Below, in pieces: positions 1,346 through 54,074 of a stretch of DNA of 54,128 nt (positions are counted from its first letter, which is position 1; every line of letters starts with the position of its first letter). The position numbers were made by a program, and so were the translations under genes. This stretch comes from an uncultured Candidatus Saccharibacteria bacterium (GTDB lineage Bacteria; Patescibacteriota; Saccharimonadia; Saccharimonadales; EFPC-124), in NCBI GenBank assembly GCA_964405095.1, contig CAYOML010000006.1:1-54128 (forward strand). Reading direction: 5' to 3'. The notes under the pieces were generated by a model that saw only the letters and a program-made list of their open reading frames with translations, was not told the origin of the DNA and did not search any database.

Positions 1346-3166
1346 CTATAGCCCACCGTAACCCCCACCATAGTATAGGTAGGAGTCTGGCTTGTGATAG
1401 TCAGTGATTTTCAGTGGTTTTGTAACTGTACTATTGGGGAGTATATACAGTTCGCTACCACTTTTGGATACCAGTAGATAATCATCGGTAAACCAACCAT
1501 ATTGTCTGTACTCACTTAACTCTGCTATGGGCTTACCGTTGGAACCCGCCTTATCACCAACAATCAGAGTGTTTTTACCATCGCGACTTTCTGACCAGAA
1601 GGTTGCTTGGCCAGACGGAGACACAAGGTACGTGGGGTAAGTTGCGTAAAAGACTTTGTCGCTGATATCTTTATCCTTTATCTTCCCCTCACTATATTCG
1701 TAACCTTTGAGCATTCCACCGTCTTGCCACACCCGAAAGAATATATCTGTAGGTGTATACTGCCGACTCTCTATGTATCCATCAGGTGCATTGGAAAACT
1801 CTTTGACAATTTTCTTACTGGTACCGTCAGTCTGGGCGCTAAGAATAGCCTTCTTTTTGCCTATGAGTCTACCTGGGTTGTAATAACCTGTACCCCACAC
1901 CTTGGTGTAAACTACTTCGCTACCAAGAAGCGTTGCATTGGAAATTTGTTCGCGAGCATAATCAGTCGTTCCCGTGCCTTCCCCGGCAGTTTCATCGAGA
2001 GTCGTCAGTTTGCCTCGCTCAGCATCAAAACTTTTCAAGGCCGACTGCTTTGGTTGCCACGACTGAACAGTATTGCGAAAGACTGTGTAAACCAATCTAT
2101 GCTCAGCCCATCCGGACAGTGTAAACTCAGCGTCGCCTTCGTCCGCCACGACCACTGAGTCCTTGGCAGTGTCAATTATATAAATTTTAGCCTTATCGCT
2201 ATCTCGGCTGGCTTTCAGAACCAGGTACTTCCAATCACGCGAAGCGAGCAGAATGGTATCTGTATCTGCCTCCTTTCCCGTACCTGCCAGCACTACCTGC
2301 TGGTTAGCACCGTCAAGATCACTCTTCATAACGTTAATTTTGCCGGTGCGCTTGCTCAAGAAGTAAACCTTTCCATAAGGTGTCATAGCAAAAGTATTAC
2401 CGTCTATGGCTTGTTCGGTAACGGTTAAATTAATCTTAAGTTCGTTGTAGCCAACAATTCTGATCTTGCCGGCTTGTGTAGTCTTACCGACAGGTAAAAC
2501 AACCGTGGCCTCGCCCTTGGAGTCTGTGATGGCCGTTGCATCGAGAGCGGTGATGGCCACCTTTTCAATAGGTTCGCCACTAATCCGATTAATGACTTTT
2601 ACGGGCACCTGGCGGCCAGTTGCTTCTAGGCTCAGGCTAGCAGGCTCAGACGACTTAGTTAGCCACACATCCACTATTACGTCGATTTCTTTGTAATACT
2701 TTTTAGCAATAGTAATATGCTGTGGTCCTACTGGCACTCCGTGAAATGTTATATTACCCTGACTGTCCGACTTCGCGCTCTGGCCAGCCACTCTAGCTTC
2801 AGCATCGGTCACCGGTTTTTTAGTCTGCGAATCGGTTAACGTCAGGGTAACATCTTTTTTAATAACCAGCCCAAGTATGCCGTAGCGAGTTGTTGGCACT
2901 GCAAACAACACACCCAATACCAAAACAACACCGGCAACTGCTAGCAGTATGCGACCCTTTGTGGTGGCCGACAATACCTTTACACCCTTGAGTAAGGTGG
3001 GTGGCTCAGCTGCAATTTTAGGTGTTTGTTGTTCATCGTGTTCGGTGCCGCCTGGTGGCTCTTCGGGCCTTTCAATATCAGACTCGTGCTTTACTGCTGT
3101 TTCACCATCCGACTGCTCAGTGGGTTGAACACCACTATGCTCTTCGGGGTCCTTTTCGTCTGCCAT
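1346..3166 (-). CDS. Membrane-anchored surface protein: acidic N-terminus, one TM helix, beta-sandwich segments, TolB/PD40-like beta-propeller-like C-terminal region
   Basis: 606-aa ORF with TM segment ILLAVAGVVLVLGVLFAV. Segments such as VTLTLTDSQTKKPVTDAEARVAGQSAKSDSQGNITFHGVPVG resemble carboxypeptidase-regulatory-like folds. SPSGQATFWSESRDGKNTLIVGD resembles PD40 repeats. Domain calls are tentative. Confidence 0.45.
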   Translation of the reverse strand: MADEKDPEEHSGVQPTEQSDGETAVKHESDIERPEEPPGGTEHDEQQTPKIAAEPPTLLKGVKVLSATTKGRILLAVAGVVLVLGVLFAVPTTRYGILGLVIKKDVTLTLTDSQTKKPVTDAEARVAGQSAKSDSQGNITFHGVPVGPQHITIAKKYYKEIDVIVDVWLTKSSEPASLSLEATGRQVPVKVINRISGEPIEKVAITALDATAITDSKGEATVVLPVGKTTQAGKIRIVGYNELKINLTVTEQAIDGNTFAMTPYGKVYFLSKRTGKINVMKSDLDGANQQVVLAGTGKEADTDTILLASRDWKYLVLKASRDSDKAKIYIIDTAKDSVVVADEGDAEFTLSGWAEHRLVYTVFRNTVQSWQPKQSALKSFDAERGKLTTLDETAGEGTGTTDYAREQISNATLLGSEVVYTKVWGTGYYNPGRLIGKKKAILSAQTDGTSKKIVKEFSNAPDGYIESRQYTPTDIFFRVWQDGGMLKGYEYSEGKIKDKDISDKVFYATYPTYLVSPSGQATFWSESRDGKNTLIVGDKAGSNGKPIAELSEYRQYGWFTDDYLLVSKSGSELYILPNSTVTKPLKITDYHKPDSYLYYGGGYGGL

Positions 3167-4293: not shown

Positions 4294-5505
4294 TTATACC
4301 TTGTTCTTGGTGAATATAAACGAACGCATAATAACAAAGTTCCAAACAGCAATTGTTGCCACCGTCAGGCATTTAGCAAGAAAGGCTGCGCCGATAAGCT
4401 GCGCATAAAGCCCAATCAACCCATTCGATAGCAAAAGATTGAAGGCATACAGCACAGCCATTTTTGCGCCTTGCCGGTTTATAGAATCGTCACGACCGGC
4501 TTTAAACACCCAGTAACGAAGCAATGTGAAGTTAAAAACAATCGTCAAAATATAGCTCACCGAATTAGCAATGTATAGTTGTAAACCGAAGATCGAATGT
4601 AACACATAAAATAACCCCGTCTCGACGACAAGGCTAAGCACACCACTCACTACGTAGCGTAAAGCTTCGCCGTGGATCTGTTTATTCTGGCCAAACATTT
4701 TAGCGGCTGTCATTAAACTCTGACCGAACTCAAGAATACGAGTGCTCTTTTTTAGGGCCTTGCGATTACTGATAATTTGTTCGGCAATTGAGCCGGCATT
4801 TCGGGCAGTCCCCTTATACCACACCTTAACTGTATCGAGGCCAGAACGCGCAAAGACCTTTTGTAGTGTCTCGGGGCTAAAGTAATAAACGTGAGTCGGG
4901 GGATGTATCATGCGCCACTTACCGCCTCGGGCCCGCGCGATAAGTGCCGATACGTCACCGGTAGTCAGAGCAAGGTAGCCGCCTGGTTTTAAAATACGAT
5001 TTATCTTCTCTATATATTTATCGGGGTGGGTCAGGTGTTCAGCTACATCCCACATGCAAACCAAATCTACCGAACTATCTTTAATTGGGTAATCTAGAAA
5101 GTCTTTTGTGGTCGCATTATGACCGCGGCTTTTTGATTCTTTTATGCCTTCTTCGCTGACATCAAAACCGATATATTTTCCGGCAATCGGCTTCAGCAAA
5201 TCTAAGAAATATCCATAGGCCGAACCAAGTTCAACTACATTGTCACCCTGTTTCAAGGCGCCAATTCTCTTTAGTCTGGCAATTCGCCTTTTGAAGTTAT
5301 GCTCGAGCGCCGGTCGATCGGCTACATAGTCTGCATATTCCATGCCAAAAAAGTAGTCTTGCTGATACAAGTCGTGTAACTCCTTACCAGTTGGGATTTC
5401 TTTTGCGACCACCATGCCGCATTTTTTGCACTTAATCACACCAGGGCAATATGGCTCAAATCTTTTACCGCTGCAGGCAATACAAACAGTCACGGGTTCT
5501 GCCAT
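4294..5505 (-). CDS. Fusion protein: zinc-ribbon plus class I SAM-dependent methyltransferase (N-terminal) and GtrA-like 4-TM domain (C-terminal)
   Basis: N-terminal CIACSGKRF..CKKCG and motif I VVELGSAYGYFLD, then LKPGGYLALTTG. The C-terminal ~130 aa (LRYVVSGVLSLVVETGLFYVL...IAVWNFVIMRSFIFTK) match the GtrA-like pattern. Confidence 0.7.
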   Translation of the reverse strand: MAEPVTVCIACSGKRFEPYCPGVIKCKKCGMVVAKEIPTGKELHDLYQQDYFFGMEYADYVADRPALEHNFKRRIARLKRIGALKQGDNVVELGSAYGYFLDLLKPIAGKYIGFDVSEEGIKESKSRGHNATTKDFLDYPIKDSSVDLVCMWDVAEHLTHPDKYIEKINRILKPGGYLALTTGDVSALIARARGGKWRMIHPPTHVYYFSPETLQKVFARSGLDTVKVWYKGTARNAGSIAEQIISNRKALKKSTRILEFGQSLMTAAKMFGQNKQIHGEALRYVVSGVLSLVVETGLFYVLHSIFGLQLYIANSVSYILTIVFNFTLLRYWVFKAGRDDSINRQGAKMAVLYAFNLLLSNGLIGLYAQLIGAAFLAKCLTVATIAVWNFVIMRSFIFTKNKV

Positions 5506-28253: not shown

Positions 28254-28724
28254 CTACTCTGCCTTCTTGTTGATCACCAGATGCCTGTCCCTACCTTCGC
28301 CCTCGGAATGGCTTTCAAGTTGCCCAAACTCCGCAACTACGCGGTGGGCGGTACGGCGATCGGCTGGGCTAGTTGGCGCCAGGTGCATGTCTTCCCCACT
28401 GTCCATCACCTGTTTGCACCAGTCGCGAACTTGGTCGGCGATGCGTTCGGCGCGGTGGCGCTTGTAGTTGGCAACGTCGATGTTGACACGGTTGAGCATC
28501 GCCTCTTGGTTCTTAAGAGCCATAGACAACAAAAATTGCAGACTGCGCAGTGTCTCACCACGTTGACCAATTAAAAAGCCATTGAGGTGAGTAGAGGGGA
28601 TGGTTAGTTCAATCACCTCTTCTTCGTCATCACAATGGGCGCTAATGGTAGTGTTAAGACCGAAAAACGATAATAGGTCCTCTAGGTATTTTTGGGCAAA
28701 ATCAATTGATGCACTACGGTCCAT
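28254..28724 (-). CDS. jag: Jag/KhpB-type RNA-binding protein (KH plus R3H domains)
   Basis: LIGQRGETLRSLQFLL (KH GXXG) and PTSPADRRTAHRVV (R3H); located downstream of yidC as in most bacteria. Confidence 0.85.
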   Translation of the reverse strand: MDRSASIDFAQKYLEDLLSFFGLNTTISAHCDDEEEVIELTIPSTHLNGFLIGQRGETLRSLQFLLSMALKNQEAMLNRVNIDVANYKRHRAERIADQVRDWCKQVMDSGEDMHLAPTSPADRRTAHRVVAEFGQLESHSEGEGRDRHLVINKKAE

Positions 28725-28726
28725 GC

Positions 28727-29662
28727 TCAGCTCCTTTTCTTTTTACGCTGTTTGCCACCTTTCTTATTGGGGGCGACCACGACCTCGGCCTCTTTCGCCC
28801 TGGCTACTTTGGTTTTGGTTTTTTCGCTGAGCTTTTCGAGCTCTGTTTCATCTTTCTTGAGTACAGTGTTTTGTTGAATGACGGCCACAATGCTGGTAGT
28901 CAACAGGTACAAGACTAATGCGCCAGCCAGGTAAATCGAAACCATGAAAGTTAGGATTGGGAACAGCCAAACCATTTTGCCGGTCATCAGGGCGCTCATT
29001 TCGCCTTGGTCAACCTGTTTGCCGGCAGCCTGATCCTTAAGCATGTCACGTAACTTGCGCTTTTCTTTTGGCTGTGGCAATAGTTGCTTGGATTGGACAA
29101 ATTGCAAACCACCGGCAACTACAGCCATGATCAGAAGTGGCCAATAGGTGTCGGACCCGGGAGCTGTGGCGTGCCTGGTCAGATCGATGATCCCGAACAG
29201 ATGATGGCTAAAGTTGCCAGCGATTGCGTCTGGTATACCCGGCAGCTGCTCCAAAAAGTCGTAAGTGTACTTGGCGATGGTGGGACCGCCTTCAGTAATC
29301 AGTCGAACGACGGCAAACAAGGCTATAAATACCGGCAACTGGACAAGTAGCAAACCAATCGAACTGAAGGGGTTAACACCACGTTCGCGATAAAGTTCCA
29401 TCATCAGTTGGGCCTCGACCTGCTTGTTGCCTTTAGCGCGTTGCTTGATCTTGGCCAGCTCGGGTTGTATCTGGCGCATAACCTTAGTTTGGCGAAGCTG
29501 TTTTTTGACTAGTGGCCACATTGCAAAACGCACCAGAATCGTAAAGACAATTAGCGCGACCCCAAAGTCGTGACCAGGGATGAGGCTGTAGATTGCAACC
29601 AGCGCATTAAAGATGGGCTGAATTAAAATAAGATCGAAAAAACTCATACTGCCATCTAGCAT
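28727..29662 (-). CDS. yidC: Membrane protein insertase YidC (short, Gram-positive-like form)
   Basis: IQPIFNALVAIY..GVALIVFTILVRFAMWPLVKKQLRQTKVMRQIQPELAKIK and NPFSSIGLLLVQLPVFIALF; lysine-rich C-terminal tail. Confidence 0.9.
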   Translation of the reverse strand: MLDGSMSFFDLILIQPIFNALVAIYSLIPGHDFGVALIVFTILVRFAMWPLVKKQLRQTKVMRQIQPELAKIKQRAKGNKQVEAQLMMELYRERGVNPFSSIGLLLVQLPVFIALFAVVRLITEGGPTIAKYTYDFLEQLPGIPDAIAGNFSHHLFGIIDLTRHATAPGSDTYWPLLIMAVVAGGLQFVQSKQLLPQPKEKRKLRDMLKDQAAGKQVDQGEMSALMTGKMVWLFPILTFMVSIYLAGALVLYLLTTSIVAVIQQNTVLKKDETELEKLSEKTKTKVARAKEAEVVVAPNKKGGKQRKKKRS

Positions 29663-29711
29663 ATCAGATTACGGAAGATCTGTAAGGTGTAAAGTTGCTG
29701 AAAGCAATAAT

Positions 29712-29801
29712 AATGGGGTGGCGCACGGTGGGGCCGCCCCAGGTTTTACTTTTTCTGTACCCAGAAAAATAAAACTAGGGGCAAACTGCGTGACAGGACC
29801 C
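29712..29801. repeat. Copy L of a ~90-nt hairpin-forming element between yidC and rnpA
   Basis: aatggggtggcgcacggtggggccgcccc...ggggcaaactgcgtgacaggaccc; reverse-complementary to 30208-30297. Confidence 0.85.
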
Positions 29802-29814
29802 GGCGACTCAGTGT

Positions 29815-30168
29815 TTATTTCTCCATCCAGATACCAGCGCGCTTCAAGGCCTCGATAATCTCCGCCTCGAGTGGAGCATATTCCATATCCCAAACCGTCG
29901 GGTCGTAAACCGTAATAATAACATCGTGACTACCCTTAATGTGATCCCAGTGAGTACGCAACACCTCGTAAACACGCCGGCGAACGCGGTTGCGTTTGGG
30001 TGAAGCCTTGATAACTTTTTTACTAATCACCACTGCCACACGGCTATGGGTACGGCGCGGGTTTGGTGCCACTCGCAAAGAAAGCAGCTTAAAACGGAAG
30101 GTCTTGCCATGACCAAACAAAAACCGCAACGCACCATAGCCGTGAAAACGGAATTTACTAGATAGCAT
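29815..30168 (-). CDS. rnpA: Ribonuclease P protein component
   Basis: 117 aa, basic, with VAVVISKKVIKASPKRNRVRRRVYEVLR (RNR motif); lies between rpmH and yidC. Confidence 0.9.
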   Translation of the reverse strand: MLSSKFRFHGYGALRFLFGHGKTFRFKLLSLRVAPNPRRTHSRVAVVISKKVIKASPKRNRVRRRVYEVLRTHWDHIKGSHDVIITVYDPTVWDMEYAPLEAEIIEALKRAGIWMEK

Positions 30169-30207
30169 AATGTGATTATATCTGATAATTAGAACCTTTA
30201 TAAGGAA

Positions 30208-30297
30208 GGGGTCCTGTCACACGGTTTGCCCCTAAAATATTTTTCTGGAGATACAGAAAAAGTATTTTGGGGCGGCCCCACCGCGCGCCACCCCATT
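30208..30297. repeat. Copy R of the ~90-nt element (inverted relative to copy L) between rnpA and rpmH
   Basis: The reverse complement reads aatggggtggcgcgcggtggggccgcccc...ggggcaaaccgtgtgacaggaccc. It is nested inside the 15-nt inverted arms 30182-30196 and 30304-30318. Confidence 0.85.
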
Positions 30298-30314
30298 TAA
30301 TTAGGTTCTGATTA

Positions 30315-30452
30315 TCAGGCGGTTAAGCGGGCGCGGCCCTTAGCGCGGCGACTTTTCACAACTTCTTGGCCGCCTTTTGTCCCCATTCGGGCGCGGAAAC
30401 CGAGCCGGCGGGCGCGGCGAATCACTTTGGGTTGGTGAGTTCGTTTCGGCAT
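30315..30452 (-). CDS. rpmH: 50S ribosomal protein L34
   Basis: [45 protein letters not shown] (45 aa). Start set at ATG 30452 rather than the longer track ORF. Confidence 0.95.
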
Positions 30453-30495
30453 ATCTATTTTTTCCTTTATGAATCTTCCCACTATACTGACAGAT

Positions 30496-30610
30496 TTATC
30501 CACATCAGACAAGTACTTTTCCACATATTAACAGATTATGGGACCACGTGTGTACAACTCGCACACCTAACAGGTCCGTGAAAAGTTTGCTGATTAGAGG
30601 TTGTGGAAAA
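30496..30610. promoter_or_regulatory. DnaA-box cluster upstream of dnaA
   Basis: TTATCCACA at 30496-30504 (perfect consensus), TTTTCCACA at 30517-30525, TGTGGAAAA (inverted) at 30602-30610. The last overlaps a possible -35 (ttgtgg-18-tatgat, 30601-30630). Confidence 0.65.
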
Positions 30611-38991: not shown

Positions 38992-40872
38992 CTAAGTTAT
39001 TGGCCCTTGCTCGTTAGTTTGCTGCTGGGAGTTAAAAAGCGTCTGTATTTGTTGTATCTGTTGGGGGTTGGTCGTGATAAGTGATGTCTCTGTAGGGCTG
39101 GCAATGACTTGGATGTGTACGTGATTAGAGCCAGCAAAAAACAATCCTTGGCCCACCGGGAACTGTGCCAGACGTTTTTTCTCCTCTTCGGTCAGTTTGA
39201 AAACGTCGGCTAGAACATCTACTGCCGAGGTAGATTGCTTAAGTAGCATCTGCATACTGGCGTTAGCCACAATCGCCCGCCCCATTTTGCTGCCCATAAA
39301 GTCTTCTACATCCTGAGTGATAGCCGTTAGTCCCAAGAAGTATTTGCGCGCCCGTTTGGCTAGGCTGAATAAAAAGTTGGCTGAATCATCATATTTCATA
39401 AGCTGCCATGCCTCGTCGACGATTAACAAGCGTTTTTTCTGTTCGCTGCGTGTCTTATTCCAAATATAGCTCAACACAATGTACATGGCTACAGGCCGCA
39501 GTTCGTCCTCGAGGTCGCGGATGCTAAACACCACCATCTTATTGTTTATGTTGACGTTAGATTGTTGGCTAAAGATGCCTGCAAAGGTGCCTGTTGTGTA
39601 TTTGCGCAGTCGCTGGGCTAGCTGCGGGCCGCTGCCACCCATGTGCAGCAAAGTCTCGTACAGGTCACCGATGGTTGGCGGCGGGCTGTTATGAGTTAAC
39701 GGGTCGCTGGTAATCCCGGCTCGGGCGTAGGTGTCGATTAAGGCTTGGTCGAGGTCGGCCTCTTCGGCTGGGTTGAGGGCCGGCAGTGACACGCCACCGG
39801 GCAGCATCTGAGCGCCACCCATCATTAGGCGCAGCAGCCCATGCAGAGTAATTAGGTTGGCACGCAAGGCGTCCTGGGCTTCGTCGTTTTCGATCACCCG
39901 TGGCAGATCAAAGGGGTTAATGCGGGTTGCGGAATTAAGACTGAGGGCAATGTAGGTGCCGCCAACTGCGTCGCATAACCGCTGATACTCGTTTTCTGGG
40001 TCTACAATAATAATTTCGGCGCCCATCATCATGCTGCGCATGGCTTCAAGTTTGACGGTAAACGATTTACCGGCACCAGATTTAGCAAAAACCACCATGT
40101 TGGCATTTTCTAGCGAGAACCGGTCGAATATTACCAGCCCGTTGTTGTGCATGTTAATGCCATACAAAACACCCTTCTCTTGCGTCAGATCGGCACTGGT
40201 AAATGGAAAACTGGTGCTCAGCGCGCCGGTGTTCATATTGTGCCTTATTTGCAACTGGTCACTGAGTTGTGGAATGGTGCTGTTTAGCCCCTGTTCCATC
40301 TGGCTGGAGGCGACTTTGCTGAACACTAACTGCTGCCCAAGAATAGTTTCGATCTTATGTTGTATAAATTGCAACTCGTCGAGGCTATCGGCATACATCG
40401 TAATATATAGGCCAAATCGGAAGAAACGTTCGGCGCCAACCTGCAACTTATCGCGCAGCTCCTCGGCATCCTGGATGGCAGCTTCCAACCCGGGGTCACG
40501 TACCTTACCCCGTTCGGAATTAATCGAGATGCTAGCCTCTAGCTGCCCGACTTTTTTACGCAGGTTATTGAGCACCACCTGGCTCTCAACCGGATAAATA
40601 AACATATTAACGTCGATGACTTCATCGATGTTAATAATTGGGCTCAGCCAACCAGTGTAAATCTGCCTTGGGTAGCCGTAAACGTACATTGTCCGGGCGT
40701 ACCTAGTACCAAGCCGGAAATAGCCAGCCTGAATTTCCAGCGAACTGGGCGCGATCACATCGCGCAGCGTGGTAATGCCCTTTAAGAACTCCTGCTCAAT
40801 CTCTTGCTGCTCACGCTGGCGCTGAGCCTGGGCTATATCAACCGGATCAACCTTTTTCTTGCCGAACGCCAT
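38992..40872 (-). CDS. virB4: VirB4-family T4SS ATPase (middle and ATPase domains)
   Basis: Walker A VVFAKSGAGKSFTVKLE, Walker B RLLIVDEAWQLM. The N-terminal part DVIAPSSLEIQAGYFRLGTRYARTMYVYGYPRQIYTGWL is typical of Gram-positive VirB4 homologs. Confidence 0.85.
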   Translation of the reverse strand: MAFGKKKVDPVDIAQAQRQREQQEIEQEFLKGITTLRDVIAPSSLEIQAGYFRLGTRYARTMYVYGYPRQIYTGWLSPIINIDEVIDVNMFIYPVESQVVLNNLRKKVGQLEASISINSERGKVRDPGLEAAIQDAEELRDKLQVGAERFFRFGLYITMYADSLDELQFIQHKIETILGQQLVFSKVASSQMEQGLNSTIPQLSDQLQIRHNMNTGALSTSFPFTSADLTQEKGVLYGINMHNNGLVIFDRFSLENANMVVFAKSGAGKSFTVKLEAMRSMMMGAEIIIVDPENEYQRLCDAVGGTYIALSLNSATRINPFDLPRVIENDEAQDALRANLITLHGLLRLMMGGAQMLPGGVSLPALNPAEEADLDQALIDTYARAGITSDPLTHNSPPPTIGDLYETLLHMGGSGPQLAQRLRKYTTGTFAGIFSQQSNVNINNKMVVFSIRDLEDELRPVAMYIVLSYIWNKTRSEQKKRLLIVDEAWQLMKYDDSANFLFSLAKRARKYFLGLTAITQDVEDFMGSKMGRAIVANASMQMLLKQSTSAVDVLADVFKLTEEEKKRLAQFPVGQGLFFAGSNHVHIQVIASPTETSLITTNPQQIQQIQTLFNSQQQTNEQGPIT

Positions 40873-41845: not shown

Positions 41846-42754
41846 TTAACGTAGCTTGATCACCACTTCTTCTTCGCCGCCCAGCCTATGGGCCTCGTGA
41901 GCAATCGCGCTGATTGTCAAATCATCGTTGCTGGCTAGCCTGATTATATCAGGCGAAACTGCTTTCGGTACAGGCGGCGGCGCTGTGGGGGTTGGCGGGA
42001 TCACGGCTGCCGGCGCAGTAGCTTTAGCCGCCGGAGGTGGTACAGATTGTGCGGCTGGGGCAGCCTGGGCAGCGTGGCTGGCATCCATTGGCTGGATCAC
42101 CCTTTGGTGCATCGAAGCCGGATATGGATTGAACTGCGGCACCGGACCATCGCCGCTAGGTTTAGCGGCGTGTTGCATCTGCGCCACAACGGTCTGTCGG
42201 CGTTCTTCATCCTTTTTGGCAATCATACCGGCGAGCGACTGCGACAGCGAGGCGCCCTCGTCGAAAACATCAACAGCACTTTGGGCTTCGGCCACAACAT
42301 CGGTAACTAGACTGGCACCGGGGGCTGCCGTGCCCTTTAAAGCCCAGCCACGGCTATCCATAACTCGTGCCAAATAATCGAGACGCTCGCTGGCCGCCTC
42401 TGCACCGTACTCTTTTGCCAGATTTTGTTGAACAAGTTTAGGTGCCACAATCTCGACATAACTAATGGTGCCGTCTGGATTCCAAAGCCGCATCTTGGGC
42501 TTAAGGTAAAACCGCGCCAGCGCCAGTAGGTAAGTTTCCATTGGCTGCTCTTTGCGTAGCGGCAGAGCCAAGACTATGAAGAACAATACTCCAGGCAGTG
42601 GGATTATAATCAGAAACAGCGAAATCTGCAGCAAAACATAGGCCACGAAACCCAAACCGGCGGCAATACCAAGATAAATAAACTGCCGGAACCCAAACGG
42701 CCCAACCAGTTTGTCCTCTGCCTCCACATCTTGTGGCACTGTGTACGCTGCCAT
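41846..42754 (-). CDS. PrgI-family (VirB3-like) T4SS membrane protein with an Ala/Pro-rich C-terminal half
   Basis: MAAYTVPQDVEAEDKLVGPFGFRQFIYLGIAAGLGFVAYVLLQISLFLIIIPLPGVLFFIVLAL matches the PrgI-family N-terminal pattern. Confidence 0.65.
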   Translation of the reverse strand: MAAYTVPQDVEAEDKLVGPFGFRQFIYLGIAAGLGFVAYVLLQISLFLIIIPLPGVLFFIVLALPLRKEQPMETYLLALARFYLKPKMRLWNPDGTISYVEIVAPKLVQQNLAKEYGAEAASERLDYLARVMDSRGWALKGTAAPGASLVTDVVAEAQSAVDVFDEGASLSQSLAGMIAKKDEERRQTVVAQMQHAAKPSGDGPVPQFNPYPASMHQRVIQPMDASHAAQAAPAAQSVPPPAAKATAPAAVIPPTPTAPPPVPKAVSPDIIRLASNDDLTISAIAHEAHRLGGEEEVVIKLR

Positions 42755-42872
42755 ATGGATAATTATAACCGGTATTGGTTATTTTGGCCTGCTTTTTAAG
42801 ATATGCACGAATTCGGTCACCCTCTTTTAGAGGACGTACCTCTACAGGTGTAAAAACGCGATAGTTTGAGTG

Positions 42873-43487
42873 CTAATGATCAGCCAGGTAGTGCTTAAGG
42901 TGCTCCATCGTCCTTTGTTGTTTTTCGTAATCAGCGACAAAGTCTAGATACTGACTGCTGCTCTCAAACATAGCCAGTATTTTTGCTGGGTGTAACCACT
43001 CGGGCCGATTACCATTCCTGTAGTAACGCAAGCTTGAGTAACGGTAAGTTTGCCAGAATCTTGGGTTAAGGTGAATATAGCGGCTGATGTGCTCTAAATA
43101 TGATTGTTCGTCAACCAAAACTGCCTTATAGCGACTCTCAAACAGCGGGCCGGTGCGTCTGTGGCGCAGGTTGAAGTAGCGACTATAGCTTGTCATAACA
43201 CTCCTCATAAGTTTTTCCATCGAACTAGCTCTGATTTGATACAAGAGTAGATGGAAATGGTTCTGCATCAAGCAATAAGCAAGCAGCTCGACCTGCCCCA
43301 AGTAATGTGGGTAAGGCGTACCTAAGCTGTCAAAAGCTGGATCTTTAGCTAGGTATCGCCCAAAAAGCCCCTCGAAGTGACGATAGTCCTGATTGTCTGC
43401 AAAGATTTTCTGCTTGTTCGCTCCCCTGGCGTAGATATGATAATAAGCAAGCTCGGCATTAGGCTTGAAAACATTCCGTGAAGGCAT
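42873..43487 (-). CDS. REP-associated tyrosine transposase-like protein (IS200/IS605 Y1 HUH family, COG1943 type)
   Basis: YHIYARGANKQKIF, AYCLMQNHFHLLLYQ (HUH = HFH), GPLFESRYKAVLV, RYIHLNP (catalytic Tyr region). Confidence 0.8.
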   Translation of the reverse strand: MPSRNVFKPNAELAYYHIYARGANKQKIFADNQDYRHFEGLFGRYLAKDPAFDSLGTPYPHYLGQVELLAYCLMQNHFHLLLYQIRASSMEKLMRSVMTSYSRYFNLRHRRTGPLFESRYKAVLVDEQSYLEHISRYIHLNPRFWQTYRYSSLRYYRNGNRPEWLHPAKILAMFESSSQYLDFVADYEKQQRTMEHLKHYLADH

Positions 43488-43511
43488 GCGCGTACTCTAC
43501 TACAACTTGGC

Positions 43512-43594
43512 TCAAAGTAGAACTAACAAGAAATAACAGTGGTAGAGGTACGTCCTCTTTGTGACGCTCTTTGTGACGACGTCCTCTTAGCCCC
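43512..43594 (+). repeat. REP-like unit B (long form, with internal tandem ctctttgtgacg duplication)
   Basis: tcaaagtagaactaacaagaaataacagtggtagaggtacgtcctctttgtgacgctctttgtgacgacgtcctcttagcccc; hairpin agagg-tacgt-cctct. Confidence 0.75.
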
Positions 43595-43596
43595 TG

Positions 43597-43995
43597 CTAC
43601 GAGTTTTTGTTTAGGGTTAAAAATTCGCTTGGGTTTTTGCAGAAGCTCAAAAGGCTTGCTACGCCGAAGGCAACCTCTTGTCGGCCTTCTGCTAAACGCC
43701 GTTCCGTTTCCGCCTGATGAACATTGCGCTGTCGCCCACGACTTACGGAGTAATATCCAGTTAGCCGGCCGTCTGGGGCAGTAGCAACAATGGCTCCCAA
43801 AGAGGCATAACCCATATGATGTCTAATATTTTCTAGAGCACTCGGGTCCAGGGGAGGCACCGTCTCTACACGTTGCGATAAACTGACAAATTCATTACCG
43901 GTCTGCTCCGGTTCAAAAACTGTACATTCGTAACCACCCGTTTGCATCGGTTCACCTAATGTATACTCGCTCATTCCAAACTCCCTTAGTTTCAA
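43597..43995 (-). CDS. Hypothetical protein (ORFan, 132 aa)
   Basis: ORF with SD aagggag 7 nt upstream of the ATG and a near-consensus promoter upstream. I recognise no motif. Confidence 0.6.
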   Translation of the reverse strand: MKLREFGMSEYTLGEPMQTGGYECTVFEPEQTGNEFVSLSQRVETVPPLDPSALENIRHHMGYASLGAIVATAPDGRLTGYYSVSRGRQRNVHQAETERRLAEGRQEVAFGVASLLSFCKNPSEFLTLNKNS

Positions 43996-44001
43996 AGTTG
44001 T

Positions 44002-44030
44002 ATTATATCATACTAAGTCAATACTAACAA
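44002..44030 (-). promoter_or_regulatory. Near-consensus promoter TTGTTA-17-(TGa)TATAAT for the 132-aa gene
   Basis: The minus strand reads cttgttagtattgacttagtatgatataat. TATAAT is the complement of 44002-44007, the extended -10 TG is present, and TTGTTA is the complement of 44025-44030. Confidence 0.45.
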
Positions 44031-44040
44031 GCTCGGACGT

Positions 44041-44135
44041 TGGTGGTAGAGGTACGTCCTCTTTGTGCTCCAAACTAGAACTGACAAGGAATAACACTGG
44101 TAGAGGTACGTCCTTTGTGGTCTTTGTGGTCCCCT
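44041..44135 (+). repeat. REP-like units C (short, 44041-44068) and D (long, 44069-44135)
   Basis: tagaggtacgtcctct at 44047-44062 and tagaggtacgtcct at 44101-44114. Unit D (ccaaactagaactgacaaggaataacactggtagaggtacgtcctttgtggtctttgtgg) aligns along ~55 nt with unit B, with few mismatches. Confidence 0.75.
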
Positions 44136-48946: not shown

Positions 48947-49384
48947 GTGCAAGTACAAACTTCATTAAACAAACTATCATCCCTGCTGTGGGGCATGGTT
49001 CTTGCTGCCGTTATTATCTTTTTTGCATCTTATCCGGCATCTGCTGCCACTGGCGGCGCCAACTGCACTATAGGTGGTCAGCCAGGTGTGCAAGTATCGG
49101 TAGGTGTAGAAGGTTCAAAATGTATACCTCTGGGGGCTACACCCGACACCAACCCCATAATTGTTTTTATGAAGGACTTACTTAAAGTGATAAGTGGATT
49201 GGTCGGGTTAGCCACGGTCGGCGGTATTATCTGGGGCGGTATGCTGTATGTGACTGCTCGGGCTAATGCCGGCCAAGTCGAAAAAGCCAAAATTGTAATT
49301 ATTAATTCGATAATAGGCCTAGTATTATTTATTTTTATGTTTGCAATACTGCAATTCTTAATACCAGGAGGGATATTTTCGTGA
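48947..49384 (+). CDS. VirB2/TrbC-like T4SS pilin paralog 1
   Basis: Signal peptide, Cys pair (ANCTIGG...GSKCIP), two-TM hairpin GLATVGGIIWGGMLYVTARANAGQVEKAKIVIINSIIGLVLFIF. GTG start. Confidence 0.65.
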   Translation: MQVQTSLNKLSSLLWGMVLAAVIIFFASYPASAATGGANCTIGGQPGVQVSVGVEGSKCIPLGATPDTNPIIVFMKDLLKVISGLVGLATVGGIIWGGMLYVTARANAGQVEKAKIVIINSIIGLVLFIFMFAILQFLIPGGIFS

Positions 49385-49803
49385 TGAAACGCTGGTTTGC
49401 AATATTGGGAGTAGGACTGCTGCTAGCCGTATCCCAGGGTCTGCCAGCGGCGGCAAAGCCATATGAGGGTGATGGGGATAGGTCATGCCGCAGTAGTTTT
49501 GGCCAATTCTTGGGCTTTAACTCCTGGGATTCGTGTTTGTACCATGCTTCCAGCGGCGCCCCAATTCTTAAGGGTATAGCCGACATCTGGTATATAGCCA
49601 TAGTGGTGATAGATGACTTCCTTAAGGCTGGAGTTTACGCTTCTATCGGCTTTATTATCTGGGGCGGCGTGAAGTATCTTAAAAGTCAGGGCGATCCTGG
49701 CGAGACAACTCAGGCCCGCCAGATTATCCACAATGCCCTTTTTGGTCTGGTGATTACTATTATTTCTGTTGCGATTGTTAACTTTGTAGCGAGTACATTC
49801 TAA
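49381..49803 (+). CDS. VirB2/TrbC-like T4SS pilin paralog 2
   Basis: Signal peptide, Cys pair (RSCRSS...WDSCLY), IGFIIWGGVKYLKSQGDPGETTQARQIIHNALFGLVITII. 4-nt ATGA overlap with paralog 1. Confidence 0.65.
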   Translation: MMKRWFAILGVGLLLAVSQGLPAAAKPYEGDGDRSCRSSFGQFLGFNSWDSCLYHASSGAPILKGIADIWYIAIVVIDDFLKAGVYASIGFIIWGGVKYLKSQGDPGETTQARQIIHNALFGLVITIISVAIVNFVASTF

Positions 49804-49804
49804 T

Positions 49805-50116
49805 ATGTTGAAAGATTTATTAAGCAACCTAGCCGCGCCCATAAATGTAGCACCAAATGATATTGGTATACCCCAAGTGCCACTCGATAATTCAGCGCTA
49901 GCCAATGCTTTGAGTGCGGTCTTTATGCTGCTTGGTGGAATGGCAGTCTTGTTTATGCTGGTTGGAGCCGTGCGTTACATAACTAGTGCGGGTGACCCAA
50001 AGAACATCAAAACGGCCAAAGACACGATTTTATATGCGCTCGTTGGTCTCGTAATTTCCATGTCGGCTTTCACCGTAGTACAATTTACGTTAGGTAAACT
50101 TGGCGGCAGTATATGA
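49805..50116 (+). CDS. VirB2/TrbC-like pilin paralog 3 (no signal peptide, no Cys pair)
   Basis: MAVLFMLVGAVRYITSAGDPKNIKTAKDTILYALVGLVISM core only. Confidence 0.6.
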   Translation: MLKDLLSNLAAPINVAPNDIGIPQVPLDNSALANALSAVFMLLGGMAVLFMLVGAVRYITSAGDPKNIKTAKDTILYALVGLVISMSAFTVVQFTLGKLGGSI

Positions 50117-50484
50117 TAAAAAAAATCGCGGCAGTAGTTGTGGCAGTAGTTATTATGGCTTTGGGTGTTGTCTCTCAGGCGCAGGCCGTTGATATTTTCC
50201 CAAAATGCGCAACTAATGACCCAGGGTCAACAGTCTGCACTGCCACTCAAGATAAGTTACTTGGCCCGGGTAGTTTGTGGAACAGAATCCTCGAGACATT
50301 CACGTTTATTATTGGCGCCGTGTCTGTACTGATGATTATTATTGGCGGCATTCGCTATGTAACGTCCGGAGGTGACCAAGCCAATATTAAGGCTGCCAAA
50401 GATACGATTCTCTACGCTGTAGTTGGTGTTGTTGTAGCTATGCTTGCTTACTCTATTGTTCACTTTGTAATATCTACCATATGA
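50113..50484 (+). CDS. VirB2/TrbC-like T4SS pilin paralog 4
   Basis: Signal peptide ...VSQAQA, Cys pair (PKCATNDPGSTVCTA), IIGGIRYVTSGGDQANIKAAKDTILYAVVGVVVA. Confidence 0.75.
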   Translation: MIKKIAAVVVAVVIMALGVVSQAQAVDIFPKCATNDPGSTVCTATQDKLLGPGSLWNRILETFTFIIGAVSVLMIIIGGIRYVTSGGDQANIKAAKDTILYAVVGVVVAMLAYSIVHFVISTI

Positions 50485-50882
50485 ACACACAACGAATAGC
50501 CTTACTGGTCGCGAATCTGGTGGTTGCCCTAGGCCTGGTTGCCGCTGTTGTGACGCCTGTAGCCGTCCAAGCTGCTGATCCCGCAACATCTAAAGCACTC
50601 TGCGAAGGCTCAGGCGGCACGTGGAACGGCAGTGCATGTACTAAGGCCGGTGAAGAATCGATACCAAGTGTATTTGGCACGATTACCAATGTTTTGTTAT
50701 TTGTGATTGGGGCAGTTAGCGTTATTGTTATCATCATTGGTGCTATCCGCTATGTGACATCGGGCGGTGAGCAGGCCAATATTAAGGCCGCAAAAGACAC
50801 GATATTATATGCAATCATCGGTCTTGTAGTAGCCTTCCTGGCATATGCTGTCGTCAACTTTGTAACGACACAGTTTAAGTAA
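50481..50882 (+). CDS. VirB2/TrbC-like T4SS pilin paralog 5
   Basis: Signal peptide ...VAVQAA, Cys pair (ALCEGSGGTWNGSACT), IIGAIRYVTSGGEQANIKAAKDTILYAIIGLVVA. Confidence 0.75.
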   Translation: MNTQRIALLVANLVVALGLVAAVVTPVAVQAADPATSKALCEGSGGTWNGSACTKAGEESIPSVFGTITNVLLFVIGAVSVIVIIIGAIRYVTSGGEQANIKAAKDTILYAIIGLVVAFLAYAVVNFVTTQFK

Positions 50883-50939
50883 GTCTATGCAAACACCGTC
50901 TGAGTGGTACAATAAAAAGCATAAGGAGAATAACTTAAG

Positions 50940-51356
50940 ATGAAATCATTCATGAGCGCAGTTACCAGAGCGTTGGCGATACCTCTGCTGACATTGAGCT
51001 TGGGTCTAGCTATGCCAGCTGCGACCTACGCCGTAGATTGCACAACCAATAACCCAGACATTACTACTGGCCCGAGCGGCGGCGCAGCTTGTGCTAAGCC
51101 AGCTAGCGGCGCTACAGATCTATTTGGCCCTGGCGGTATCTTTATTACGATTACCAACATCCTGCTGTTCGTGATTGGTGCCATTGCTGTGATCATGTTG
51201 ATCGTCGGCGGTATTCGTTACGTCATCTCATCGGGCGACCAAACGGCAGTTACCAATGCTAAAAACACGATTCTTTACGCGATCATTGGTATTGTGGTGG
51301 CCTTCCTGGCCTTTGCCGCAGTCAACTTCCTGACCGGGCAGCTGACTCCTAAGTAG
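50940..51356 (+). CDS. VirB2/TrbC-like T4SS pilin paralog 6
   Basis: Own SD (aaggag), signal peptide ...PAATYA, Cys pair (VDCTTNN...GAACAK), IVGGIRYVISSGDQTAVTNAKNTILYAIIGIVVA. Confidence 0.75.
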   Translation: MKSFMSAVTRALAIPLLTLSLGLAMPAATYAVDCTTNNPDITTGPSGGAACAKPASGATDLFGPGGIFITITNILLFVIGAIAVIMLIVGGIRYVISSGDQTAVTNAKNTILYAIIGIVVAFLAFAAVNFLTGQLTPK

Positions 51357-53981: not shown

Positions 53982-54074
53982 TGGCGGAGGAGGAGAGATT
54001 CGAACTCTCGCACCAGGTTGCCCCAGTCTAATGATTTAGCAAACCATCCCCTTCAACCACTTGGGTACTCCTCC
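53982..54074 (-). tRNA. tRNA-Ser (anticodon GCU), type II with a long variable arm, CCA encoded
   Basis: The minus strand folds as ggaggag-ta-ccc-aagtggttgaa-ggg-g-atggt-ttGCTaa-atcat-(21-nt variable arm)-gagag-ttcgaat-ctctc-ctcctcc-g-cca. Confidence 0.9.

Follow-up and report, generated by a model that had tools for sequence, protein, structure and literature searches.

The gene for the RNase P protein, rnpA, was found to be bracketed by two inverted copies of a hairpin-forming element of about 90 nt on the stretch of DNA analysed here, 54,128 nt of contig CAYOML010000006.1 (assembly GCA_964405095.1) from an uncultured Candidatus Saccharibacteria bacterium, referred to below as the window. 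This arrangement raises the question of whether the two copies, termed L and R, form a device that serves rnpA, or whether rnpA happens to lie between two members of a wider repeat family. An earlier note on this DNA, prepared from the letters of the window alone, had put forward both possibilities. L and R were identified as members of a family of small repeats dispersed over contigs of the Saccharimonadales, which appears to be an undescribed dispersed palindromic repeat of an ordinary kind, under unusually strong structural and sequence constraint. In our judgement this family is probably a non-autonomous mobile one, comparable to miniature inverted-repeat transposable elements (MITEs) and repetitive extragenic palindromic (REP) sequences, with a fold of one strand that is recognised in trans, and the pair around rnpA is incidental.

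The operon that carries both copies lies on the minus strand and consists of rpmH (ribosomal protein L34, 45 aa; 30315-30452), rnpA (117 aa; 29815-30168), yidC (311 aa; 28727-29662) and jag (28254-28724), divergent from dnaA, dnaN and recF on the plus strand. The first gene, rpmH, has a translation ending in KGRARLTA and is situated inside an open reading frame (ORF) covering 30315-30524. The positions of the ORFs confirmed that the copies fill spacers of 146 nt between rpmH and rnpA (30169-30314) and 152 nt between rnpA and yidC (29663-29814), as the earlier note had described, and the presence of R and L accounts for these two long spacers in an otherwise compact operon. Homologs of rnpA are annotated as ribonuclease P protein component and carry PF00825, while the corresponding neighbours in relatives carry PF00468 at the position of rpmH and PF02096 (60KD_IMP) at that of yidC. 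The reported lack of yidD also held, with no yidD-like ORF between rnpA and yidC (judged from the ORF list only, with no profile search).

Copy L was placed at 29713-29803 of the plus strand by a covariance model of the family, R1 (82.9 bits, E=2.3e-17, the match spanning the whole model), with its consensus strand antisense to the rpmH-rnpA-yidC operon; it is situated 12 nt past the rnpA stop and 51 nt ahead of the yidC start. Copy R was placed at 30207-30296 of the minus strand (83.1 bits, E=2.1e-17), sense to the operon, 18 nt past the rpmH stop and 39 nt ahead of the rnpA start. Alignment of L (29712-29801, plus strand) with the reverse complement of 30208-30297 reproduced exactly the matches previously given, 29/30 over the first 30 nt and 22/24 over the last 24 nt. 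The same arms were recovered as inverted repeats by a repeat search of the window, as near-identical segments of 30 nt and 26 nt lying 407-466 nt apart. The 26-nt core GGGGTGGCGCRCGGTGGGGCCGCCCC occurs twice in the 54-kb window with up to three mismatches allowed, where shuffled sequences lead one to expect 0.00 occurrences, and no third copy was detected in the 54 kb by blastn or nhmmer.

Each of the two copies folds as a single long hairpin of -36 to -42 kcal/mol (z-scores -2.8 to -4.4), with values of -40.4 to -41.6 kcal/mol for R. The middle stem reads GGUUUUA/UAAAACU in L and AAAAUA/UAUUUU in R, confirming a compensatory change in both strands. When R is folded with its flanks, an outer inverted repeat of two 16-nt arms (94% complementary) also pairs, the proximal arm (30182-30197) ending 14 nt before the start codon of rnpA and the distal arm (30303-30318) overlapping the region of the rpmH stop codon. 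L and R share a GGGGTGG start, CGCRCGG and GTGACAGG, features found in no other member, and they can thus be regarded as a subfamily specific to this genome. ORFs cross both copies; a small protein product was nevertheless rejected, as the frames of L and R differ, other members contain stops, and the variable part shows paired substitutions together with insertions and deletions.

Further copies were sought with sequence patterns, over one genome per species and then over metagenomes, which yielded true homologs on two genome contigs and 15 metagenome contigs. Model R1, built on 18 copies, recovered all 18 at 83-107 bits and added more diverged copies at L013 3069-3159 and L003 4928-5018. The family as it now stands comprises 20 distinct full-length copies (52-107 bits) on genome and metagenome contigs of the Saccharimonadales, together with two remnants. 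One remnant is a 43-nt derivative (L011 6141-6183) without P3/P4, in which P1, the internal loop and P2 are intact. The other is a solo 3' arm recovered by a search for arms (L017 4541-4560, plus strand; AAACCGGACAGCAGGACCTG, 2 mismatches), situated inside a called 83-aa ORF and 160 nt from an oppositely oriented full copy; this solo arm is probably what is left of a decayed second copy. The core of the element measures 85-91 nt, extended to about 150 nt by an outer stem in some copies. The family is small, multi-copy and non-coding, as is typical of MITEs, its frames not being conserved between L and R by inspection.

The sites occupied by these copies were found to be unrelated to one another. 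Genes neighbouring the element encode ComEC, YebC, an ABC-F protein, an alpha/beta hydrolase, Der, PNPase, RuvC, an FtsJ/TlyA-like methyltransferase and dihydrofolate reductase (folA), and further neighbours named by eye from their translations include glyS/rnhA-like, rpmH, uracil-DNA glycosylase-like (UDG-like) and RNase J-like ORFs. On contig L002, from an uncultured bin, a copy lies between the glyS-like and RNase H-like ORFs, and on contig L003, from a metagenome-assembled genome of Candidatus Saccharimonas, a copy directly follows rpmH in the opposite orientation, at a place without rnpA. Convergent, divergent and tandem gene pairs are all represented, with the element in either orientation and many copies 8-40 nt from a stop or start codon. 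Where two copies lie near each other elsewhere, their arrangement is direct on L007 and L013 and inverted on L003 and L011. As a rough extrapolation from the 3-4 extra copies in about 140 kb and the two in the 54-kb window, the density may be in the order of one copy per 30-40 kb. The earlier note had reckoned that dozens of copies scattered without a link to rnpA would speak against its rnpA-specific readings, and the distribution observed comes close to this.

The fold common to the family runs in the order P1, internal loop, P2, junction, P3 and variable hairpin. P1 consists of CGGGU/ACCCG, one pair of which is swapped from C-G to G-C in R, and is followed by an asymmetric internal loop in which G-R stands opposite R-CAGG. 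P2 is made up of seven pairs, five of them covarying, the junction places UGGGGCC opposite AAA, P3 is GCCCC/GGGGC, and the variable hairpin is A/U-rich with a cap that is usually GUAAUC. Several members additionally have an outer stem, CAAAACCC ... GGGTTTTG, while the outer stem of R is of unrelated sequence. In the model-based alignment of the 20 copies, which is fitted to R1 and hence leans toward structure, 96.3% of 652 cells across 33 pairs are paired and 22 of the 33 pairs have changed on both sides. The covariation score was 0.452 as against 0.160 for shuffles, with none of 500 reaching it, and slid partners scored at most 0.152. An independent MAFFT alignment gave 96.6% paired cells and 19 compensatory pairs. 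The argument of the earlier note, from a compensatory change between two copies to selection on local structure, is greatly strengthened by this family alignment. G-U or U-G combinations occupy 35 cells and A-C or C-A combinations only 4, and this excess indicates that selection acts on the fold of the consensus strand, in the form of single-stranded RNA or DNA.

Homologs of RnpA placed the source of the window among the Saccharimonadales. In relatives, the flanks of rnpA were found to lack the element. Eight relatives with RnpA identities of 69-75% keep the order rpmH-(GDSL lipase)-rnpA-yidC-jag, the spacer that follows rpmH measuring 17-67 nt and the one ahead of yidC 27-60 nt, and model R1 detected no copy in the 47 kb of DNA covered for five of them. 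A nearer relative, P0241 (JGI 3300041967), falls inside the 90% RnpA cluster of the window and is represented by the gene table of a 27.5-kb contig; only 67 nt separate its rpmH from rnpA, too little to accommodate R. The rnpA-yidC spacer of P0241 measures 529 nt and contains a called 36-aa ORF of the opposite strand; this nearest relative may thus have an L-like copy together with further inserted DNA, and no R. Counted together, nine relatives with the same operon have no room for R and eight have none for L. These empty flanks, and the presence of the element beside unrelated housekeeping genes, make the link to rnpA most likely incidental. A GDSL-lipase gene was also observed between rpmH and rnpA, overlapping the rnpA start, in two relatives, L020 (9336-10004) and L024 (1673-2338), which marks the rpmH-rnpA junction as a site of recurrent gene-order change in this clade.

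Evidence for mobility was obtained from a within-species pair of contigs, L007 and L011, whose flanks at the comEC-yebC junction are 99.3% and 97.3% identical. An insertion of 150 nt, consisting of the element and an 18-bp outer inverted repeat, is found directly after the comEC stop in L007 (2024-2173) and is absent in L011. Presence/absence polymorphism at an orthologous site, a known trait of MITEs, is thus seen here and in the empty rnpA flanks of the relatives. One version of the variable hairpin is common to copies from several contigs, and a second version is common to another group. L003 and L015 are syntenic from a UDG-like gene onward and carry the element upstream of it in opposite orientations; synteny breaks at the element, with rpmH / UDG in L003 and pnp / UDG in L015.

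These results fit the suggestion, one of several made in the earlier note, that a MITE- or REP-like element had landed twice, given the at least 20 unrelated sites, the empty flanks and the within-species polymorphism. In the sequence of events that we propose, L and R, as members of a dispersed, small, ORF-less hairpin family of the Saccharimonadales, would each fold on one particular strand as a single-stranded nucleic acid. A trans-acting protein, either a mobilising enzyme or a host factor as candidates, would recognise the folded strand. Both rnpA spacers would have acquired a copy in this lineage, R probably having arrived more recently than L, and any effects on rnpA would be a by-product, in the form of stable hairpins in the operon mRNA or of an R:L duplex looping out rnpA. 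Mobility, recognition in trans and the by-product status of such effects are what we infer from the comparisons above.

Several findings weigh against this proposal, the first group of which concerns the means of mobility. No target-site duplication and no conserved target sequence was seen at any junction of the element, whose arms form imperfect inverted repeats (CGGGT-GA-CGTTCGGT and CGGGTCCTGCCGTCCGGT); a direct duplication was absent from the single clean filled and empty pair (L007/L011), and none was consistent across copies. GACTATC was observed on both sides of the copy at L013 6822-6909. A search for separated arms in about 430 kb did not find an autonomous partner with the same ends, and recovered only paired arms and the one solo arm. 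The only transposase-like gene in the window encodes a HUH transposase of 204 aa resembling REP-associated tyrosine transposases (RAYTs), at 42873-43487 on the minus strand (PF01797, Y1_Tnp, E=1.9e-10; HFHLL and YIHLNP motifs), and it is flanked by hairpins of its own that are unrelated to the 90-nt element. These hairpins are 15-nt palindromes, AGAGGACGTACCTCT, with four occurrences in 1.3 kb (42829-44116) where 0.05 would be expected. Corresponding hairpins flank the RAYT homologs of L031, L032 and L033, those of L031 and L032 being near-identical and those of L033 showing compensatory differences, and model R1 found the 90-nt element to be absent from all three loci. No RAYT homolog was detected by tblastn in the other loci. 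The RAYT-like gene of the window is thus a possible but unsupported mobiliser of the element, having different flanking hairpins and no 90-nt element near its homologs. The protein family to which it belongs gave 3754 matches, nearly all of 204 aa and mostly from Patescibacteria.

The second group concerns the degree of conservation, and it is also what speaks for a structured RNA module selected by the host, in which, however the element had spread, P1, the internal loop and P2 would be bound or cleaved by a conserved cellular protein and kept by purifying selection at each copy. GGGUG, GGGGC and CAGGACCC, at unpaired or basal positions, are invariant in 20/20 copies. At the orthologous site upstream of ruvC in L008 and L011, where synteny is kept at 72-81% nucleotide identity (coding about 75%), the arms are 41/42 identical and the flanking spacer is unalignable; the L011 copy, which has lost P3/P4, is the 43-nt derivative that retains P1, the loop and P2. 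L008 and L010 are 99.8% identical over 11.6 kb and so represent the same genome, which makes paralogs of their two blocks of a long hairpin of 220 nt followed by the element, and in these blocks the element is 99% identical as against 84% for the adjacent long hairpin. Such conservation, judged from sequence comparison, is far above that of a decaying selfish insertion and points to a function selected at each copy. The element may thus have a function under selection; the alternative to selection acting on every copy is homogenisation of the copies toward a master that is itself constrained. The excess of G-U pairs would suit a transcribed strand, and many copies lie close to stop or start codons; on this account the element could be a small RNA itself or, within intergenic RNA, a signal for processing, stability or termination. 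The orientation of the element is mixed, however, with approximately 12 copies sense and 8 antisense to the flanking gene by our own count and, for genes whose 3' end abuts the element, 5 sense and 6 antisense; a signal acting in cis on mRNA should be sense. No promoter-like sequence is common to the upstream flanks, no consistent U-tract was found and a terminator scan of the region in the window did no better than shuffles, the neighbouring genes have no common theme, and the insertion difference between L007 and L011 shows that the element is dispensable at that site. Taken together, copies in both orientations, flanks that share no promoter and a copy in L007 that is dispensable argue against a simple cis-acting mRNA signal. 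A host-selected module is regarded as a serious though clearly less probable account, and one that partly overlaps with the mobile family favoured here, as REP, ERIC and Correia sequences are both mobile and functional. A little more doubtful is the specific proposal that P1, the G-R/R-CAGG loop and P2, with the invariant GGGGC junction, form a new functional single-stranded motif of the Saccharimonadales, kept by the host through purifying selection at each site, as a signal for RNA processing or protein binding or as a small catalytic RNA; if it were correct, the element would be more than selfish DNA, and rnpA would be flanked by two such signals in opposite senses.

Two further explanations treat the bracketing of rnpA itself as meaningful. 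In one, R and L would pair over approximately 85 bp to loop out rnpA for RNase III-type processing, or the hairpins would attenuate read-through and so set the dose of the RNase P protein. The minimum free energy fold of the 671-nt operon RNA does pair R with L (-285.7 kcal/mol, z = -12.7), and the R:L cofold reaches -154 kcal/mol against -77.5 kcal/mol for the summed local hairpins, so that the long-range duplex raised in the earlier note stands as thermodynamically favoured in the full-length transcript; the same thermodynamics would nonetheless be expected of any 90-nt inverted repeat. Three relatives carry, after rpmH and at the position of R, an ordinary terminator-like hairpin with a T-run, as read by eye. 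The pair itself is present in no relative, nine operons have no room for R, and the family is without an association with rnpA, pairs elsewhere being direct as well as inverted. It may be added that local hairpins should form first during transcription and that translating ribosomes should oppose the duplex. The dosage, attenuator and RNase III-stem roles once proposed thus found no comparative support, and we regard an rnpA-specific bracket as improbable. In the other explanation, the near-identical arms of 30 nt and 26 nt would allow the rnpA segment to invert or recombine as a DNA cassette, whether homologous or site-specific recombination were at work, a notion favoured by the spacing of the arms and by the coincidence of elements with synteny breaks in other genomes. 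It is very unlikely, given that rpmH, rnpA and yidC all point the same way in each of the nine relatives examined, that inversion would uncouple a normally essential gene from its operon, and that no recombinase gene adjoins rnpA in the ORF list of the window.

Comparison with known families was consistent with the earlier statement that no described element matches. Rfam 15, which includes riboswitches, self-cleaving ribozymes, signal recognition particle RNA, 6S RNA and tmRNA, gave no match at the gathering threshold in the window and 15 loci, and at E<=10 only chance hairpin matches to microRNA or CRISPR models over the element. ARAGORN identified nothing at the element, and plasmids and phages gave no blastn match to it. 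Two pattern scans of IMG/VR produced no true copy, R1 scores there reaching at most 16 bits as against 52-107 for real copies. In the literature library searched, no paper was found that describes such an element in Saccharibacteria or Patescibacteria, or dispersed structured repeats in the Saccharimonadales.

The closest likenesses are to be found among other extragenic repeats. REP sequences and the bacterial interspersed mosaic elements (BIMEs) built from them, which occur with RAYTs in enterobacteria and pseudomonads, are likewise multi-copy, ORF-less, imperfect palindromes in either orientation and often follow a stop codon; in both families it is the structure, and not the sequence as a whole, that is conserved, recognition is presumed to involve a single DNA strand, and a RAYT-like gene is present in the window. 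They differ in that REP sequences measure 20-40 nt while the core of the element measures 85-91 nt with two conserved internal loops, in that the 5' GTAG of REP is absent at either end in the 20-copy alignment, and in that a cognate RAYT is flanked by inverted REP sequences, whereas the RAYT-like gene of the window is flanked by AGAGGACGTACCTCT. Correia elements (CREE) of Neisseria, ERIC/IRU, and RUP and BOX of pneumococci are non-autonomous, hairpin-forming repeats of 100-150 nt that lie between housekeeping genes, are co-transcribed and fold in mRNA. Closely related strains differ in their insertions, individual lineages have subfamilies of their own, and the copies could provide substrates for RNase III or affect how stable an mRNA is. 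The element too would be non-autonomous, and it shares with them the hairpin, the size range, the location between housekeeping genes, the insertion differences between close strains, the subfamilies and the conceivable effects on mRNA, but no target-site duplication and no matching insertion sequence was seen for it, its unpaired nucleotides are far more conserved than is usual, and it shows a strong strand asymmetry in G-U pairs.

Other structured elements were found to agree in part. Integron attC sites also combine a conserved fold with a variable terminal hairpin, possess basal boxes with an unpaired spacer and function as one folded strand; the element, however, has no RYYYAAC/GTTRRRY core sites, its ends being CGGGTGAC ... 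CAGGACCCG, and neither same-orientation arrays, promoterless cassettes nor intI occur nearby, the copies being isolated or mixed in orientation and the flanking genes being core housekeeping genes. The RNase III stems that flank rRNA genes resemble the window in having complementary sequences on either side of a gene in one transcript, but this arrangement is absent from the nine orthologous operons, and each arm here folds into a hairpin by itself and belongs to a dispersed family.

Candidate classes of RNA signal were likewise tried. An intrinsic terminator was rejected, as half of the copies run antisense to the gene that they abut and the U-tract is not consistently 3' of the full hairpin; a terminator scan of the window region flagged only the small internal GGGGCCGCCCC hairpin, and the count was not above that of shuffles. 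A terminator/anti-terminator switch, conceivable in that the GGGG of the junction and the GGGG of P3 can both pair with CCCC, found no support: the U-rich run is not at a consistent place and P3 closes after it. A kink-turn in the internal loop, rejected by inspection only, would have a possible G-A pair, but the second pair would be G-G and the A that is required is a G in the copies of the window. The bottom strand, GGGTCCTG / CC, may resemble relaxase nic cores or T-DNA borders; the geometry differs.

The Saccharimonadales are episymbionts with reduced genomes and tightly packed genes, and a repeat family of this kind could serve as a usable marker of recent genome change in them, by way of insertion polymorphisms and synteny breaks. 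The element is also a concrete candidate for a new mobilisation mechanism or a new RNA signal, and for annotation it warns against reading a gene-specific regulatory device into a genome-wide repeat.

Two other repeats were observed in the vicinity of the element on other contigs. The long hairpin of about 220 nt mentioned above was identified at L008 2264-2486, L010 1228-1452 (minus strand) and L012 12687-12876, with 68 predicted pairs, 19 of them compensatory among the three copies; it gave no Rfam or ARAGORN match and could be a 6S-like RNA or another MITE. At each of these loci the 90-nt element lies 16-20 nt 3' of the long hairpin, and in L019 it is preceded by a 35-nt stub of that hairpin (1564-1597). 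GTAG-rich tracts (GGTAGGTNGTAGGTAGTAG) were noted at L002 6900-6925 and 7018-7050 and at L003 approximately 2010-2040 (minus strand) and 4875-4900. On these two unrelated contigs they are no more than about 60 nt away from the 90-nt element, and they may be another short repeat family.

With regard to the remainder of the window, the replication origin could not be placed relative to L and R by GC skew. Positions 1-27000 appear to hold mostly glycosyltransferase, polysaccharide-export and nucleotide-sugar genes, according to inspection of the ORFs and the Pfam tables of relatives. The segment 36428-50882 consists mostly of unannotated genes, with a TraG/VirB4-like P-loop ATPase at 38992-40872 and a PrgI-family protein at 41846-42754, and looks like a type IV secretion or conjugation-like cluster with the RAYT-like gene inside it; in P0241 a TraG-like gene is also found a few kb from recF. 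Small ORFs of a secreted or membrane-like character follow in a run over 48947-51356, and a tRNA-Ser(GCU) gene is located at 53982-54074.

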